Shown piece after piece: positions 1 to 60,495 of a DNA stretch of 64,000 nt. The DNA is from Escherichia coli. GTDB taxonomy: Bacteria > Pseudomonadota > Gammaproteobacteria > Enterobacterales > Enterobacteriaceae. Where the stretch lies: assembly GCF_030013595.1 (NCBI RefSeq), contig NZ_CP122768.1. One strand, 5' to 3'. The stretch's first letter is position 1; every line of letters begins with the position of its first letter. The translations under genes were made by a program, and so were the position numbers. The notes beneath the pieces are model-generated. The model was not told where the DNA came from. It did not search any database and saw nothing but the letters and a program-made list of their open reading frames with translations.

Positions 1-748
1 ATAGTTTGCTGATAATGTATACTCTGAATTCGATGTATCACAGATTCATGTTCAGGCATGTCGGAAGCATTGCTTGTCTCCACCGCCAGGGATGCAAAGG
101 CGCTGGCATAACACAGTGCTGATTCCAGTGATTTTCCTTTCGCAAGTCCTGATGCCAGAGCGCCGTTAAAAGCATCCCCGGCTCCTGCCGTATTTTTAAC
201 GACCGCTGGAAACGCTGGCGAATGAATGAATTTTTTGCCATCAAATGCGAGCGAGCCCTTGCTACCGAGCGTGATAACGGTGTTTTTTACCCCTTTATTG
301 TGGATAGCTTCTGCAGCTCGTTTAGCTGATTCAAGATCGTGTACGTCTATGCCGGACAGTAAACCAGCTTCTGTTTCATTGGGGGTGATATAATCAACAT
401 CCTGAATAAGTTCGTTGACGATATCATTATAGGGTGCCGGGTTAATAATGACCGGGATACTGTTTTTTTGCGCCAATGTGATCGCTTGTTGCAGAGCGGT
501 ATAATTTGTTTCGAGCTGCAGAAGTATGACATCAGAATTAATAATCGCTTCTTTCTGAATAGTTATTTCATCGGACGACATTGTCATGTTGGCACCGGGA
601 TAGATCGCAATAACATTATCGCCAGTACCTTCATTAACAAGGATCGTGGCAGTTCCGGTTTGCGTTTCTTTCGTTTGATAAATTATACTTTTATAAATCT
701 TAGACGAATTCATAAAGTTGATCGCATAATCACTAAAGTGATCTGTAC

Positions 749-757
749 CTACTTTTG
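749..757. repeat. IS1 target-site duplication, left copy (ctacttttg)
   Basis: Identical 9-mer immediately flanks both IS1 ends. Confidence 0.85.
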
Positions 758-772
758 GGTAGTGACTCCAAC

Positions 773-1276
773 TTACTGATAGTGTTTTATGTTCAGATAA
801 TGCCCGATGACCTTGTCATGCAGCTCCACCGATTTTGAGAACGACAGCGACTTCCGTCCCAGCCTTGCCAGATGTTGTCTCAGATTCAGATTATGTCGCT
901 CAATGCGCTGAGTGTAACGCTTGCTGATAACGTGCAGCTTTCCCTTCAGGCGTGATTCATACAGCGGCCAGCCATCCGTCATCCATACCACGACCTCAAA
1001 GGCCGACAGCAGGCTCAGAAGACGCTCCAGTGTGGCCAGAGTGCGTTCACCGAAAACGTGCGCCACAACTGTCCTCCGTATCCTGTCATACGCGTAAAAC
1101 AGCCAGCGCTGACGTGATTTAGCACCGACGTAGCCCCACTGTTCGTCCATTTCCGCGCAGACGATGACGTCACTGCCCGGCTGTATGCGCGAGGTTACCG
1201 ACTGCGGCCTGAGTTTTTTAAATGGCGGAAAATCGTGTTGAGGCCAACGCCCATAATGCGGGCGGTTGCCCGGCAT
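773..1276 (-). CDS. insB: IS1 InsB (transposase C-terminal ORF, expressed as InsAB' by frameshift)
   Basis: 167-aa ORF overlapping the insA 3' end in another frame, typical IS1 organisation. Confidence 0.9.
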
Positions 1277-1470
1277 CCGACGCCATTCATGGCCATATCA
1301 ATGATTTTCTGGTGCGTACCGGGTTGAGAAGCGGTGTAAGTGAACTGCAGTTGCCATGTTTTACGGCAGTGAGAGCAGAGATAGCGCTGATGTCCGGCAG
1401 TGCTTTTGCCGTTACGCACCACCCCGTCAGTAGCTGAACAGGAGGGACAGCTGATAGAAACAGAAGCCAC
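1195..1470 (-). CDS. insA: IS1 InsA
   Basis: 91-aa [45 protein letters not shown]... matches IS1 InsA. Confidence 0.9.
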
Positions 1471-1525
1471 TGGAGCACCTCAAAAACACCATCATACACT
1501 AAATCAGTAAGTTGGCAGCATCACC

Positions 1526-1534
1526 CTACTTTTG
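1526..1534. repeat. IS1 target-site duplication, right copy (ctacttttg)
   Basis: Identical 9-mer immediately flanks both IS1 ends. Confidence 0.85.
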
Positions 1535-1736
1535 TTATGAAATAAACATCAGTATCGGCAAAGCTTGCTGCCAGCGCCTGGTTACAACCTTTTCCCCCCG
1601 GTGAAAATATAAAATTACTTGCCAGAAGCGATTCTCCGATAGTGGGAAGCCTCGGCAAATAACTGATGATATCAACATTAAACGAACCAATAACGCATAC
1701 TTGACTTTTCATAGTTGAGTGGCCTTTTTTTATTCC

Positions 1737-1979
1737 CTAGGCTGTATCATAATTTTCAAGCGCATAAGCGATTTCATTTTTCGCAATAGTATCAAGCGAG
1801 TCTAGGACGATAAAAGCACCGCCATGATATCGAGTCAGATAGCCAAGTCTGGCAAGTTCATTAAGATCTGATCGAATAGTTTCTTTCGTTACATTGAGGC
1901 TATTGGACAGATCGGATACTTTTACAGAACCGAATTTACTGAGTCGTTTCAATATTTCATGATGGCGTTCAAATTTCAT
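1737..1979 (-). CDS. Short DeoR-family HTH protein (80 aa), possibly a truncated regulator of the downstream kinase
   Basis: MKFERHHEILKRLSKFGSVKVSDLSNSLNVTKETIRSDLNELARLGYL resembles a DeoR N-terminal HTH domain; stop lies 25 bp upstream of the kinase start. Confidence 0.5.
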   Translation of the reverse strand: MKFERHHEILKRLSKFGSVKVSDLSNSLNVTKETIRSDLNELARLGYLTRYHGGAFIVLDSLDTIAKNEIAYALENYDTA

Positions 1980-2097
1980 GCTTCACCTCACTTCAGTTAC
2001 GTTAATATCTGTCGATGTATATTGATGTGATAATCACCATAAAGTGGCGGGGAAAAGCAAAAAAAATCAAAAATAGCCGGAGAAAAGGTAAGCGTTA

Positions 2098-2580
2098 ATG
2101 GAGAATCATATTGATGCTTATTTATTGGTGAGAACTACGTTCCATGGCAGGAGTTCATCAATACGGTTGGAAGGTTATTCCGGCAGTACGCTCAGGATAT
2201 GGCGCAGATACTCTTCCGGATCAATGTCGTTCAGAAGGCAAGTGCCGATAAGCCCATACAACAGTGCACTGCGCTCGCCGTCGAAGAACATAAAGTTTTT
2301 ATTTCCGAGACAGATGGCACAAAGGGCTTTTTCCGCGGCATTATGTCTGCCTCCGCCTGACCGTCAACACTGTAATAACAGAGTGCGCCCCACTGATTCA
2401 GTACACAGCTGAACCATTCTCCCAGTCTGGATTTTTGGACAGCGTGGCATTTTTCTCCACCATCCACGCATGCAGTGAGTCCAGTAACAGTTTGCTCTTC
2501 CTCTGCCTGACCACAAGATGTTCTGGTTCTGGCATACTGAATTTGGCCACCTGAGCATAGGTAATATGCTCACCTTAGAA
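2098..2580 (-). mobile_element. IS66-family transposase 3' remnant, frame-broken
   Basis: Minus-strand translation in shifting frames gives ...LHAWMVEK..PKIQTG..., ...QWGALCYYSVDGQ...IMPRKKPF... and ...DPEEYLRHILSVLPE..RIDELLPWNV, resembling the conserved C-terminus of IS66 TnpC. Confidence 0.5.
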
Positions 2581-2590
2581 CAACACAGAT

Positions 2591-3288
<698 letters not shown>

Positions 3289-3477
3289 CGCTTACGCGAG
3301 AGCAATAAGTGGCTGGCCACCATTCTCGATACAAAACTCTGCTGAATAGCAGCGATTTTCCCAGCGTGGTGCGTCTTTTGCATTTTACTGGTTCTGAGTT
3401 ATCAATTATCTGTTCACTAATGACTACTCTAAAAAGTTGTATCAATTTAAGTGATATAGGGAGTCCGGAGATTCACC
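3289..3477 (-). mobile_element. IS2-like left-end remnant (terminal repeat plus degenerate orfA 5' region)
   Basis: Minus-strand sequence TGAATCTCCGGACTCCCTATATCACTTAAAT...TTTTTAGAGTAGTCATT..GAACAGATAATTGAT...ATCGCTGCTATTCAGCAGAG resembles the IS2 left end and orfA start (MID..P.K.RRTT..K) as recalled from memory; abuts the truncated receptor gene. Confidence 0.45.
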
Positions 3478-4002
3478 CTTTTTGGTGATGAAGTTAACAA
3501 TACCGCCAATTGCCTGTGAACCGTACAGTACGGAATATGGACCTTTCACTACCTCAACACGCTCCAGCGCAGACTCATCTATCAACAGTCCCACACCATA
3601 ATTATCTCCGGCGCGCTGATAAGTTACCTCCTGACCATCAATGAGAATTAAAACACGGGAGGATGCTTCGCCACGAATGCGGATTTGTTTACGGCCTGCC
3701 AAGGAGTTGTCTGTTATCTCTACTCCGGGGATGTCCTGCAAATTATCGGCTATGGAGGCATTGGTGGAGTTCTGCAATGTTTGTTGGTCAATAACCTGTA
3801 TAGTCGCCGGGCTTTCCCAAAGGTTGCTTGCCGAACGATTCGTGGTCACGACGAGCGTCTCTTCGTTGCTGATTTTTGTTTCTGAAGAAGTTGCGGTTGC
3901 AGTAGAAACTATCCCAGAAATGCATAATGACAGAGTGGAAAGGATATAAATTCGACAAGGTATATTATATAACATTTCATCCCTCATTAATACAAAGCAC
4001 AA
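3442..4002 (-). pseudogene. TonB-dependent outer-membrane receptor, N-terminal plug fragment (yoeA-like), truncated by IS insertion
   Basis: Signal peptide, TonB-box-like ETLVVT, plug-domain motifs (IRIRGEASSRVLILIDGQEV, VEVVKGPYSVLYGSQAIGG); the frame runs into the IS2-like terminal repeat and stops; no barrel domain follows. Confidence 0.6.
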
Positions 4003-4182
4003 ATGATTGCTGTAATGATAATTATTTTCATTTATGTTCTCATATATCTATAATTATTGTCATCTTCATAAATTGTAAATATCAAACATTTTTGACCTTA
4101 ATCATGTTTTTTGATAGATATTTTACGACTGAACATATCCGTCGTTTCCTCTGACTCGTGTCAGTCGGTCTCTGGTTGTATC

Positions 4183-4221
4183 CACGGACCGCACTCTTGA
4201 CATAAGAGTGCGGTCCGTGGA
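4183..4221. repeat. Perfect 17-bp inverted repeat with 5-nt loop (ccacggaccgcactctt gacat aagagtgcggtccgtgg)
   Basis: Read directly from sequence; GC-rich stem in an AT-rich noncoding segment; no adjacent T-run on either strand. Confidence 0.8.
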
Positions 4222-5646
4222 AAACGGAGTTGAAAAAATGGTGTCTGAAAGAAGGTACCATCATTGTGATGACAAATACTTTGGCGTGGATAATGTAATT
4301 AATTGCTGAAATTGACCGTATATGCGGTAAGACTCATATCAGTATCAGGTCCGGTTAATTGCTGATACTAATATAAACTTTTTACAAAAGGATGAATGCA
4401 GAAGGTTACTCTAATGGCCAGAGTGATGACAATGATGGTCAGACGTTGACCTGCAGAAACTGCATTTTAATTGGTCTATAAAGTCTGCAAGAGGAATCAG
4501 GGTCAGATCAGTGAGTCTTATCGCGGCCCGAAGCTATGACTGAAAGAAGGCTGGATACAGAATTGCAACAATTTGGCAATGTCAGAACACAGAAGCTTTG
4601 CAAGCAGGTGAAAGGTTATGTCTAGCAAAAGGAGTATATCAGAATATATCTACTGATGTACAAAACACAACAATAGCTTCATGATATATAAATACGTGAT
4701 GACGAGTGGTACTCCGCATGGTTATTTAACTTCTCAGCACCACTAATGATCCTGAGCAACTTCGTATTTGGGCCATTACCATGGAGTAGAAAGCTGTGTC
4801 TGAGAATGCAGAATTTGAGAAAAGAATTCGCTTTCTTGGAGAGCTTCTGAAAATGGCACGCTAACAACGTTTTGTTAAAAAATGTGAATCACTTGCCGGG
4901 GCTGCATTTTCTATTCGAGGAGAATGTTGACGTAGATATTACAGAAATCTCAGCGCATCAGGATAAACTGCTACCTTAGGTCAACCACCAAAAGAAAATA
5001 CAATACGTCCAGTTTGTATGCCTTTAATAACACATCTTCTAAATGTTGAAGAATTATCCCGCCTGCTGAAGAACGTTGCTCTGAGTGTGATAAACCTTTT
5101 TATTCTTGATGATGTCAGCGAGAAGATGGAATATATCCCCGACTGGGTCGTGGTTACCCGGTTAAACATCTGGTGGCGCTAATAAATCTGGCAAGTCACA
5201 TTCTGTTGAATGCTGTGACAGTGCCTTACCGAGAGAGCGAAATTGTGGTGTTCTAGTGCATAGTCGCCACCATTCCGGATAATTCTATTACGTTGTTTTA
5301 CAAGTTCTTTTACAGCGCAGATCTGTCGCTGACGTTGAATCAATAGCCTGGATTTCAGAACACAATGCCCGTTTGCTGGTTGTTCCGGCAGTAGCATTAA
5401 TTCATTATCTGAATGAAATGTGTCAATCCACAGAAACCGCTGTCAATGACGCATTTTGTCGGACGTTAACACGAGAAAGTCTGGCTATTCCGTAATGCCA
5501 TCTTATTTCGTAATGGATTGAGAATGCTGGATTTTTAATTATATTACGCGCAGTATTAATCGCGTAAATGTTTTGCGGTCAGCAACGGTGGGGGATCCAT
5601 TGTTCTGTTCAATGAATACCATCATACAATTGAATCAGGAGTCGGT

Positions 5647-6192
5647 ATGATGATTTTGGTGACGGGGGGCGCACGGAGCGGGAAGAGTCGCCACGCAGAG
5701 GCGCTTATTGGGGACTCTTCACAGGTTCTGTATATCGCCACCTCGCAAATCCTTGATGACGAGATGGCTGCACGGATAGAACATCATCGGCAAGGCCGTC
5801 CGGCGCACTGGCGCACGGTGGAGCGTTGGCAACATCTTGATGAATTAATTCATGCAGACATTAACCCGCATGAAGCTGTGTTGCTGGAATGCGTTACCAC
5901 AATGGTGACTAATCTGTTGTTTGATTATGGCGGCGATAAAGACCCTGATGAATGGGATTATCAGGCGATGGAACAGGCGATTAATGCTGAGATTCAGTCG
6001 TTGATTGCTGCCTGCCAACGTTGCCCCGCAAAGGTTGTATTAGTGACTAACGAAGTGGGAATGGGGATTGTGCCGGAGAGTCGTCTGGCACGACATTTTC
6101 GTGATATTGCCGGGCGGGTAAATCAGCAGCTGGCCGCTGCGGCAAATGAAGTATGGCTGGTGGTTTCGGGTATTGGAGTAAAAATCAAATGA
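5647..6192 (+). CDS. cobU: Adenosylcobinamide kinase / adenosylcobinamide-phosphate guanylyltransferase
   Basis: 181 aa, P-loop GGARSGKS; cobU-cobS-cobT order with overlapping junction. Confidence 0.93.
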
Positions 6193-6932
6193 GTAAATTA
6201 TTTTGGGCGATGCTCTCATTTATTACGCGTCTGCCTGTACCGCGTCGCTGGTCCCAGGGACTGGATTTCGAGCATTATTCTCGCGGTATTATTACTTTTC
6301 CTTTAATTGGATTATTGCTTGGCGCGATTAGCGGGCTGGTCTTCATGGTGCTGCAGGCATGGTGTGGCGTACCACTGGCGGCACTGTTTAGCGTACTTGT
6401 GCTGGCGCTGATGACCGGGGGATTCCACCTAGACGGCCTCGCCGATACCTGTGATGGCGTATTTTCTGCACGTAGCCGCGATCGCATGTTGGAAATCATG
6501 CGTGATAGCCGTTTAGGCACCCATGGCGGTCTGGCATTGATTTTTGTTGTACTGGCAAAGATTCTGGTATTAAGCGAGTTGGCTCTGCGTGGCGAACCGA
6601 TCCTTGCATCGCTGGCGGCAGCATGTGCGGTCAGCCGCGGGACTGCCGCATTATTGATGTATCGTCATCGTTATGCCCGGGAAGAAGGGCTTGGCAATGT
6701 GTTCATTGGCAAAATTGATGGGCGACAAACCTGCGTCACACTCGGCTTAGCCGCTATTCTTGCTGCCGTATTATTGCCGGGTATGCATGGTGTGACTGCT
6801 ATGGTGGTGACGATGGTGGCGATTTTCATCCTCGGTCAGCTTCTCAAACGTACGCTGGGCGGGCAAACCGGCGATACGCTGGGAGCTGCTATAGAGCTTG
6901 GTGAACTGGTCTTCCTGCTGGCACTGCTATAA
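6189..6932 (+). CDS. cobS: Cobalamin 5'-phosphate synthase
   Basis: 247-aa polytopic membrane protein starting MSKLFWAML; 4-bp overlap with cobU stop. Confidence 0.9.
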
Positions 6933-6943
6933 AGAGACGTGAC

Positions 6944-8023
6944 ATGCAAACACTTGCCGATTTACTGAATACGATCCCTGCTATCGATCCTGCCGCTATG
7001 TCGCGTGCACAACGGCATATTGACGGGTTACTCAAACCTGTTGGTAGCCTGGGAAGGCTGGAGGCGCTTGCCATACAACTGGCGGGAATGCCGGGGTTGA
7101 ATGGCATACCGCATGTGGGCAAAAAAGCGGTACTGGTTATGTGTGCCGATCACGGCGTCTGGGAGGAAGGGGTCGCTATTTCCCCAAAAGAAGTGACAGC
7201 CATTCAGGCTGAAAATATGACCCGCGGAACAACCGGCGTGTGTGTGCTGGCAGCACAAGCGGGCGCTAACGTCCACGTAGTTGATGTTGGTATTGATAGT
7301 GCTGAGCCTATCCCCGGGCTTATCAACATGCGTGTCGCACGAGGTAGCGGCAATATTGCTTCAGCTCCGGCAATGAGTCGCCGTCAGGCTGAAAAGTTGC
7401 TTTTGGACGTCATATGTTATACGCGGGAGCTAGCAAAAAACGGTGTCACGCTGTTTGGTGTAGGTGAACTGGGGATGGCAAACACGACACCGGCAGCGGC
7501 AATAGTCAGCACAATCACTGGCCGGGATCCTGAAGAAGTGGTTGGGATTGGCGCAAACCTGCCGACAGATAAACTGGCTAATAAAATTGATGTTGTGCGC
7601 CGGGCGATTACGTTGAATCAACCAAATCCGCAGGATGGCGTTGATGTTCTGGCAAAAGTGGGGGGATTTGATTTGGTCGGAATGGCTGGCGTGATGTTAG
7701 GCGCTGCTTCCTGCGGTTTACCCGTGTTGCTGGATGGATTTCTTTCTTATGCTGCTGCGCTCGCAGCCTGCCAGATGTCTCCTGCAATCAAACCGTATCT
7801 CATTCCTTCTCACCTGTCGGCAGAAAAAGGGGCGCGTATAGCGCTGTCGCATTTGGGGCTGGAGCCTTATCTCAATATGGAGATGCGTTTAGGTGAGGGG
7901 AGTGGCGCAGCTCTGGCGATGCCCATCATCGAAGCTGCTTGTGCGATATACAACAACATGGGCGAACTTGCTGCCAGTAATATTGTTCTACCGGGGAATA
8001 CGACTTCTGATTTGAACAGTTAA
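6944..8023 (+). CDS. cobT: Nicotinate-nucleotide:dimethylbenzimidazole phosphoribosyltransferase
   Basis: 359 aa; conserved position after cobS. Confidence 0.93.
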
Positions 8024-54978: not shown

Positions 54979-58303
<3,325 letters not shown>

Positions 58304-58517
58304 CGCGCACCTCGTGGCTGATTATGGACGGCGTTATTGGCAAAGTGGAACAAGACTCACTCCCGGGTCAGCAAACTCGAAAAATTGACGCTCCCATTAT
58401 TTGTGCTTTCGTTTTTTTCTATCCGCCAATAAACCCGTTTTTTTGTTGCTATTTAGCGCCTTTGTCTTATTGACTTACTGGTAGGCTTTGCTACCAGAAA
58501 TTATCCGGGAGATGAAA
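58304..58517. promoter_or_regulatory. Divergent fliF / fliE promoter region (class 2 flagellar promoters)
   Basis: Intergenic region between divergently transcribed fliF and fliE; assigned by position and known flagellar regulation, motifs not resolved by eye. Confidence 0.5.
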
Positions 58518-58832
58518 ATGTCAGCGATACAGGGGATTGAAGGGGTTATCAGCCAGTTACAGGCTACGGCGATGAGTGCGCGTGCACAGGAATCACTGCC
58601 GCACCCGACCATTAGTTTTGCCGGGCAGCTGCACGCCGCGCTCGATCGCATAAGCGATACACAAACAGCCGCCCGCACGCAGGCAGAAAAATTCACCCTC
58701 GGTGAACCCGGCGTGGCGTTAAACGATGTGATGACCGATATGCAAAAAGCCTCAGTTTCTATGCAAATGGGGATTCAGGTGCGTAATAAGCTGGTGGCGG
58801 CGTATCAGGAAGTGATGAGCATGCAGGTGTAG
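58518..58832 (+). CDS. fliE: Flagellar hook-basal body protein FliE
   Basis: 104 aa from [10 protein letters not shown]. Confidence 0.9.
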
Positions 58833-59236
58833 GTTTTGTAACCTGTTGTTAATTACATCCGATCTCACCGCGTGGGGCATGGATGGGGCAAACTCACTCA
58901 ATTTCTGGTTTAAAATGGAAACCTGATTCTGAAAGTTTTCTGCCATCCACGATCCGTAAACGCGATAAACCCTCTGTTCATCAGAGTGTCTCATTTGACA
59001 CATCACCACGTCGGATGTTGTTACGACCACAGACGCAACAGTAACGTTTGGATAATTTAATCTTTGTTGATGTTTTTATTCATATTCCGGGCAATGGAAA
59101 TAATTAGGCATAATTGTGTCACTGGAATAGAGGTTTCTTGTGGCGCATGTGGAAGGAGCGTCTAAGGACAAGACATATGCGGCTGGTGATGAATAAAGGC
59201 GTAGCACGTCGAATGCAAGAATGTGCTGCGTCTGGC

Positions 59237-59716
59237 TCATGGCAATTCATTATTTTCGCATAGCGTCAATGACAAAAATCGACTGTGTGGATCAAGTTGA
59301 TAATCAGCAAACGGTTCGCAATCAACGAAACCATGCTTCAAATAAAGTTGATGGCAGGCCGTAAATCCAGCCTGTGTACCCGTTTCTAAGCTCAGGCGAT
59401 GAAGGCATCTGTCATGGGCGACCTGCAAAATGTGGCGTAAAATCAGACTGGCGACACCTCGACGTAAATAATTTGGCGCGGTACGCATTGATTTCAGTTC
59501 GCCATGTTTATCATCCAGCAACTTCAGCGCACCAATTCCTGCGAGTTGTTCGCCTTCCCATACTGACCAGAATGTCACTGTCGGGTTACGTAATTTTTGC
59601 ACATCTAAAGCATGACTGCTTTCGGGGGGAGACTGCTGCAGCATGCCGGAAATATGGTAAGCCACTAATGCTTGCACTGCTGGATGGGTGAGATCATCTG
59701 TTTTAATCGTGAACAT
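59237..59716 (-). CDS. yedL: GNAT-family N-acetyltransferase
   Basis: 159 aa. Confidence 0.85.
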   Translation of the reverse strand: MFTIKTDDLTHPAVQALVAYHISGMLQQSPPESSHALDVQKLRNPTVTFWSVWEGEQLAGIGALKLLDDKHGELKSMRTAPNYLRRGVASLILRHILQVAHDRCLHRLSLETGTQAGFTACHQLYLKHGFVDCEPFADYQLDPHSRFLSLTLCENNELP

Positions 59717-59826
59717 GACGATTCCGTATTGGTGTTATTTTTGCAATATGCCAACAGGTACTGAAATCTTTGTCTAATAGAGATTTCTTATGACGCAGTA
59801 TTGTTGATCAATAATCTCCAGGCTTA

Positions 59827-60495
59827 TCAGATAGGTTGAATTAACTCCGCTCCCTGGTTTTTAACATTACCCACCGCGCGCGATACCGGGTGCTAGGTGA
59901 ACTGGTTTGCTGGCACACAGCCACTGGTAGCGATTTCTGAGGCTTCTTTACCGCCAATATCTTGCCGCATCCATTCCCGCGCAGCTTCTGGCGACAGTAC
60001 CAGTGGGCGGCGGTCATGAATATCTACCAGACCCTGGTCTGCTGCTGCAGTGACAATCAAAAATCCTTCGGCTTCGTCACCGCGCTCGAACGGTGTGCTG
60101 CCTATCGCGGCCATAAAAACAGGTTGTCCGTCAGCGCGATAGATAAAATAAGGCTGTTTTTTGTCGCCTTCTTTTTTCCACTCAAACCAGCCGTCGGCAA
60201 AACAGATTGCCCGACCGTGTTGCCAGAGCGGTTTAAACATGCGACTGGTTGCGGCAGTTTCTACGCGGGCGTTAATCAGCGGCGGTTTATCCCACCATCC
60301 GGGAGCATATCCCCAGAAAACCGGATCCAGATGAAGGTGTTCATCACGTTCACTGAGCAGAAGAACTTTGGTTCCCGGCGCGACGTTGTATCTGCCAATG
60401 GGTTCGGGATCGTAGGGAATATCGCGTTCAATATCTTCCGCGAGAAGCGCAAGGTAATCTTCACGCGTTTGGGATTGGGCAAAGCGTCCACACAT
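59827..60495 (-). pseudogene. yedK: SRAP/SOS-response-associated peptidase homologue with premature amber codon at 59893..59895 (after residue 200)
   Basis: N-terminal MCGRF catalytic-Cys motif; after the TAG the same frame stays open for 21 more codons (HPVSRAVGNVKNQGAELIQPI) before TGA, consistent with a truncated conserved C-terminus. Confidence 0.7.

Follow-up and report, generated by a model that had tools for sequence, protein, structure and literature searches.

The short fliE-yedL interval of an Escherichia coli chromosome is a common form of a variable, phage-scarred spot

Why is the spacer between fliE and yedL so much shorter in the E. coli DNA analyzed here (a stretch of 64,000 nucleotides from contig NZ_CP122768.1, hereafter the window) than in K-12, and what became of the K-12 material? 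The spacer occupies 404 bp in the window (58833-59236), and its equivalent in K-12 MG1655 occupies 1620 bp. An earlier note on this DNA had put the interval at about 400 bp, which the measurement bears out, and had named an equally short interval in K-12 as the finding that would speak against its account; the alignment with K-12 was run, and the K-12 interval is the longer one. The surrounding gene order, fliF (minus strand), fliE (plus), yedL (minus), yedK, yedF, yedE, yedD, and amyA, is that of E. coli flagellar region III. fliE encodes a flagellar hook-basal body protein and lies at 58518-58832 on the plus strand, as placed by a tblastn self-match and by the annotation at the equivalent position of strain HCP5S3_I2 (99.9% identical). 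yedL, at 59237-59716 on the minus strand, encodes a GNAT N-acetyltransferase (Pfam Acetyltransf_1, E = 1.1e-13) and falls within a segment, 59165-59767, that is present in some strains and absent from others.

Pairwise blastn against the K-12 locus (L002) reduces the difference in length to one block. Window 58300-59101 matches L002 1501-2302 at 97.4%, and window 59093-60600 matches L002 3510-5019 at 96.1%. The two matching segments are collinear with the window order and overlap by 9 bp (window 59093-59101), leaving 1207 bases (L002 2303-3509) that only K-12 has. The first 269 bp 3' of fliE are common to K-12 and the window, so the 3' context of fliE is unchanged.

This shared portion carries a recognizable gene remnant. 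A minus-strand ORF at 58752-59030 is, on the evidence of K-12 annotation, nucleotide identity, and integrase homology, the orthologue of K-12 intG (b1936). In NC_000913.3 intG is a 279-bp pseudogene overlapping the 3' end of fliE and flagged "cryptic prophage PR-G" (b1936 at 2012502-2012780, fliE at 2012700-2013014). The window copy likewise overlaps fliE by 81 bp (58752-58832) on the opposite strand, and it is identical to b1936 at 270 of 279 nucleotides (96.8%) and at 87 of 93 translated positions, the stop codon counted. The earlier note had dismissed this 92-codon ORF as spurious and had listed intG, yedM, and yedN together as absent; the ORF is intG, present at 58752-59030, and what is missing is yedN, including the old yedM. 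Small ORFs that overlap gene ends near variable loci can thus be recognizable pseudogene remnants.

Only ~58851-58997 of the intG ORF is derived from an integrase. This DNA begins 19 bp past the fliE stop codon and corresponds to residues 383-431 of a 434-aa phage integrase, and toward its 3' end the ORF reads on into the antisense strand of fliE. By blastp the ORF is 88% identical over 49 aa to the Int of Escherichia phage IdasGreatGrand (E = 2e-27). By tblastn it matches 171 phage records (among the matches listed, mostly annotated integrase), and in PHROGs it matches phrog_216, integrase (E = 2.4e-5). PGAP annotates an "integrase, incomplete" in HCP5S3_I2 at the equivalent of window 58857-58997. 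The fragment is too short for Pfam, which gave no integrase match for the 92-aa ORF and nothing beyond noise (DM_Arn, E = 0.22). A functional tyrosine integrase is a full-length protein of ~430 aa with arm-binding, core-binding, and complete catalytic domains; the ORF has the homology but only a small part of this extent, and intG is a pseudogene fragment, the last ~50 residues of a phage integrase.

The DNA at the fliE stop codon itself points in the same direction. The 29-mer CATGCAGGTGTAGGTTTTGTAACCTGTTG (58820-58848, plus strand) spans the stop codon and occurs identically beside int in phage IdasGreatGrand (PP925829.1), and the blastn alignment of window to phage (L006) starts within fliE, crosses the stop codon, and runs on into the int remnant. 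Beside its own int gene the phage has a copy of the end of fliE and of the 17 nt that follow it. Over the stretch that takes in the 3' ends of fliE and int, the two sequences agree in 172 of 196 aligned columns (88%), and a separate search gave 87.5% to the same phage over window 58833-58997. Judged by these alignments, the match to CATGCAGGTGTAGGTTTTGTAACCTGTTG is the signature of an attachment core, in which the phage brings a copy of the fliE 3' end and its integration restores the gene, and 58820-58848 marks the left end (attL) of an old prophage. Neither the window nor any other E. coli variant examined yielded a second (attR) copy of the core, even with mismatches allowed, and the window has no xis or other phage genes. 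An intact or excisable prophage would have attL and attR, int, and xis; here there is a single core copy.

The same site is occupied elsewhere in the family. A FliE-anchored scan of one genome per species returned 80 loci, the E. coli species representative not being among them. In 12 other Enterobacteriaceae species, from Citrobacter, Enterobacter, Leclercia, Kosakonia, and Pseudenterobacter, a full-length int lies ~30-40 bp past the fliE stop codon and reads toward fliE (L010, L020, L021, L029, L032, L037, L046, L053, L059, L060, L066, and L074; ~6340-7640 in most). Eleven of these are 84-87% identical to the phage enzyme and one, from Kosakonia, is 67% identical; partial int copies were seen at fliE in 7 more species. 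In Citrobacter amalonaticus (L010), fliE and int are followed by excisionase and phage methyltransferase genes. The arrangement in the 12 species indicates prophages, live or recent, that are attached at the 3' end of fliE.

The 1207-bp block that the window lacks has a GC content of 33.7% and consists of a frameshifted DUF5503/leucine-rich-repeat gene. The current K-12 record treats this gene as a single pseudogene, yedN (b4495), formerly split into yedM and yedN; the old yedM is its first 116 codons and contains the full DUF5503 match (E = 2.7e-81). The two older names therefore stand for one dead gene, and yedN is what decay has left of a secreted-effector gene of the espR4 type. Its O157:H7 counterpart between the same flanks, espR4, is intact, and so is espR3, which lies in a tandem duplicate. 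The duplication there (L005 3803-6973) has as its unit an intG fragment, an espR gene, and part of yedL, and at its joint position 59568, in yedL, is linked to 58849, where the int remnant begins (both in window coordinates). We found no EspR4 homologue anywhere in the 64-kb window by tblastn, and no ORF combining DUF5503 with leucine-rich repeats lies between its intG and yedL. No function is gained by the short form, and the sole loss is that of a gene already dead in K-12.

Both flanks of the effector block are still in place. The left flank (59013-59101) is common to K-12, O157, and others, where by alignment it lies upstream of yedN or espR4; its last ~60 bp (59040-59101) have a GC content of 29% and resemble the missing block. 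The right flank (59102-59236) is common to K-12 and O157, where it runs from the end of yedN or espR4 (and espR3) to the yedL stop codon, and has a GC content of 48%. They meet at 59093-59101, the site of the block in other strains, where the 9-bp overlap of the K-12 flanks reads AATGGAAAT. Imperfect repeats border the block, ATGGATAT to its left and ATGTAATT to its right. A search of 58300-59900 against Rfam at a permissive threshold returned no RNA family, a promoter scan found no promoter-like sites, and terminator-like sites numbered 2, compared with 1.6 expected by chance. No function is expected of the spacer, which is non-functional debris.

How common this arrangement is can be read from 5426 complete E. 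coli genomes. In 2621 of them (~48%) the scar stops at window 58968 and gives way to emrE-ybcL-ybcM with an IS200/TnpB element, and in 2694 it extends as in the window. The window's effector-less junction occurs exactly in 1147 genomes, a subset of the 2694. Most of these (1014 of 1147) combine it with a 603-bp yedL deletion (59165-59767), the IAI1 type (L004), and ~133 genomes (2.5%; obtained by subtracting 1014 from 1147, not by direct tally) have the window layout with the effector absent and yedL present. A count of 475 for this layout, made with a 261-bp query, was discarded as inflated, as pieces of the O157 tandem duplicate had been joined into single matches. Strains without yedL that have the effector were also found; the effector and yedL indels therefore segregate independently of each other, the pattern to be expected where recombination reshuffles old polymorphisms. 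The emrE-ybcL-ybcM filling, which takes up the space between fliE and yedK, was delimited in strain W619 (L003 6670-11253), with breakpoints at window 58968 and 59833; genomes with this filling have no yedL at all. In K-12, emrE, ybcL, and ybcM are located in the DLP12 prophage.

The 404-bp interval is thus one of the common states that this variable, phage-scarred spot takes in E. coli, and it represents ordinary strain-to-strain variation. Reference genomes already carry annotations for all of its elements, and the variation is already known. The earlier suggestion that the K-12 material is the remnant of a strain-specific island is supported in the sense of strain-variable island or prophage debris, of which the window has the shorter state. 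A literature search on yedN/intG/fliE and on espR3/espR4 returned virulence-gene lists and unrelated papers, and nothing on the junction.

How, then, did the short form come about? One option offered at the outset was an empty site, that is, a lineage that the intG/yedM/yedN island never entered, and the small size of the spacer is all that speaks for it. True virgin sites have a different layout. In Citrobacter, Kosakonia, Phytobacter, and Buttiauxella yedF comes within ~50-100 bp of fliE, and in Enterobacter yedD takes its place (L014, L018, L023, L025-L028, L031, L065, L067, L070, L071, and others); where yedF follows, there is no integrase sequence in between. The window, in contrast, retains the attL-like core and the C-terminal integrase remnant (58820-~59012) together with both espR4/yedN flanks. 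A virgin fliE attB is refuted by the integrase remnant at 58851-58997, which reveals a site that was occupied and has decayed, and we regard a history in which the island never arrived as very improbable. Still less credible is an assembly or sequencing artefact, such as one that collapsed the low-GC block: exactly this junction recurs in 1147 complete genomes, which come from many different laboratories, and the nearest genome, HCP5S3_I2 (pig, UK), differs at only 3 of 2301 positions spanning it (99.87% identity).

The direction of the event is a closer matter. The short form could be the older one, in which the intG scar and yedL were adjacent first and the low-GC espR block was inserted later, at 59093-59101, in an ancestor of K-12 and O157. 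Such an insertion would fit the ends of the block, which are sharp and identical in K-12, O157 espR4, O157 espR3, and strain 25-07233, as well as its foreign GC content, the normal GC content of the right flank, and a short junction that is old and widespread (1147/5426). However, the block boundaries show no transposase, inverted repeats, clear target-site duplication, or recombinase site; the low-GC tract reaches ~50-60 bp leftward past the junction, a part that the short form retains; and the O157 duplication shows the gene travelling with these flanks. The low GC content just left of the junction, so like that of the block, makes the retained left flank look like the edge of the same foreign segment. 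On the other side, the microhomology that a deletion would have used is short and imperfect and would look identical after an insertion, and the right flank is unlike the block in GC content. The two short alleles, window-type and IAI1-type, differ by ~4% around the junction, so the junction is old, which fits either direction. Nor does an outgroup polarize the event, since DNA homologous to 58998-59236 was found in none of five non-coli Escherichia genomes (L011, L012, L013, L016, L024); these Escherichia-labelled genomes, which include E. whittamii and E. albertii, diverge from the window by ~9-15% in fliE. Taken together, it is more likely that the effector gene was lost in one old deletion than that it was never inserted in this lineage, and we consider the late insertion possible though rather unlikely. 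Of the two options in the earlier note, "a different deletion" is the better reading, and as a description of the state of a strain-variable island remnant it is essentially correct, deletion being the likelier direction of the event.

The account we favor, to which as a whole we would give a probability of roughly two in three, is a decayed prophage scar at an integration hot spot, present as a common allele, from which the effector block was lost by deletion. A phage of a temperate family whose attachment site overlaps the fliE stop codon integrated here at some time, and the attL core at 58820-58848 and the last ~50 integrase codons, which are K-12 intG or PR-G, are what survives of it. Beyond the scar, other E. 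coli have a low-GC module whose gene encodes an effector of type III secretion (T3SS) and is of the espR type, intact in O157:H7 and decayed as yedN in K-12, and in the window the flanks of that module are joined at 59093-59101 with the 1207-bp block missing. The structural part of this account (a past phage integration, the surviving attL and intG, an espR module elsewhere, and joined flanks in the window) we hold to be nearly certain. The loss of the block was probably a single ancient event of illegitimate recombination across the microhomology ATGGA/ATGTA, and the short allele may since have spread among lineages by homologous recombination; passage by that route would explain why it combines freely with the presence or absence of yedL.

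A broader proposal can be made, although we put it forward tentatively and doubt it more than we believe it. Temperate phages of one family may use the fliE stop codon as a conserved attachment site across Enterobacteriaceae, and the whole E. coli fliE-yedF interval, with yedL, yedK, and the espR genes, may be reshuffled prophage cargo, a small modular exchange locus. If this were so, the effector and the acetyltransferase would segregate as independent cassettes, and the window allele would be effector absent, yedL present. That the 3' end of fliE serves phages as an attachment site in many genera of enterobacteria may be of interest to those who map prophage integration sites. In practice, the fliE-yedL spacer is a multi-allelic prophage scar that could serve as a strain-typing marker, and genome scans should not treat its short form as anything out of the ordinary.

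Some observations concern the neighborhood of the spacer. In the window yedK, which encodes an SOS-response-associated peptidase on the minus strand, carries a nonsense change, W201* (TGG to TAG, window 59893-59895), that removes 22 C-terminal residues relative to K-12 and HCP5S3_I2. The underlying SNP lies at 59894 (T in the window, C in HCP5S3_I2), and either the truncation is genuine and specific to this strain or the base was misread in sequencing. One genome, labelled E. coli SCPM-O-B-8794 (L013), has ~89-92% nucleotide identity to the window in flanking core genes and probably belongs to another Escherichia species. Its fliE-yedF interval (L013 6300-9400) contains a larger int remnant, a 204-aa membrane-protein ORF that we take to be YagU-like, a homologue of yedL (80%), and a 134-aa ORF, presumably DUF1398-like. 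yedK is absent from this interval and was not detected beside fliE in the other sampled Escherichia genomes.

Several known systems can be set beside the locus. With phage IdasGreatGrand and the fliE-adjacent prophages it shares the orientation of int and the int-fliE distance seen for the full-length int genes of the 12 species; phages of the IdasGreatGrand type have a full int, whereas the window keeps only residues 383-431 of 434 and has no excisionase or attR. Compared with K-12 intG (PR-G), the position and the 279-bp ORF are the same, and the difference amounts to 9 nucleotides, nothing material. Relative to K-12 yedN and O157:H7 espR4/espR3, the window retains both flanking sequences without the gene block between them. 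The emrE-ybcL-ybcM form has the same fliE-proximal scar to at least 58968, followed by emrE, ybcL, and ybcM, which the window does not have. The IAI1 form has the same effector-less junction, and from it the window differs by keeping yedL.
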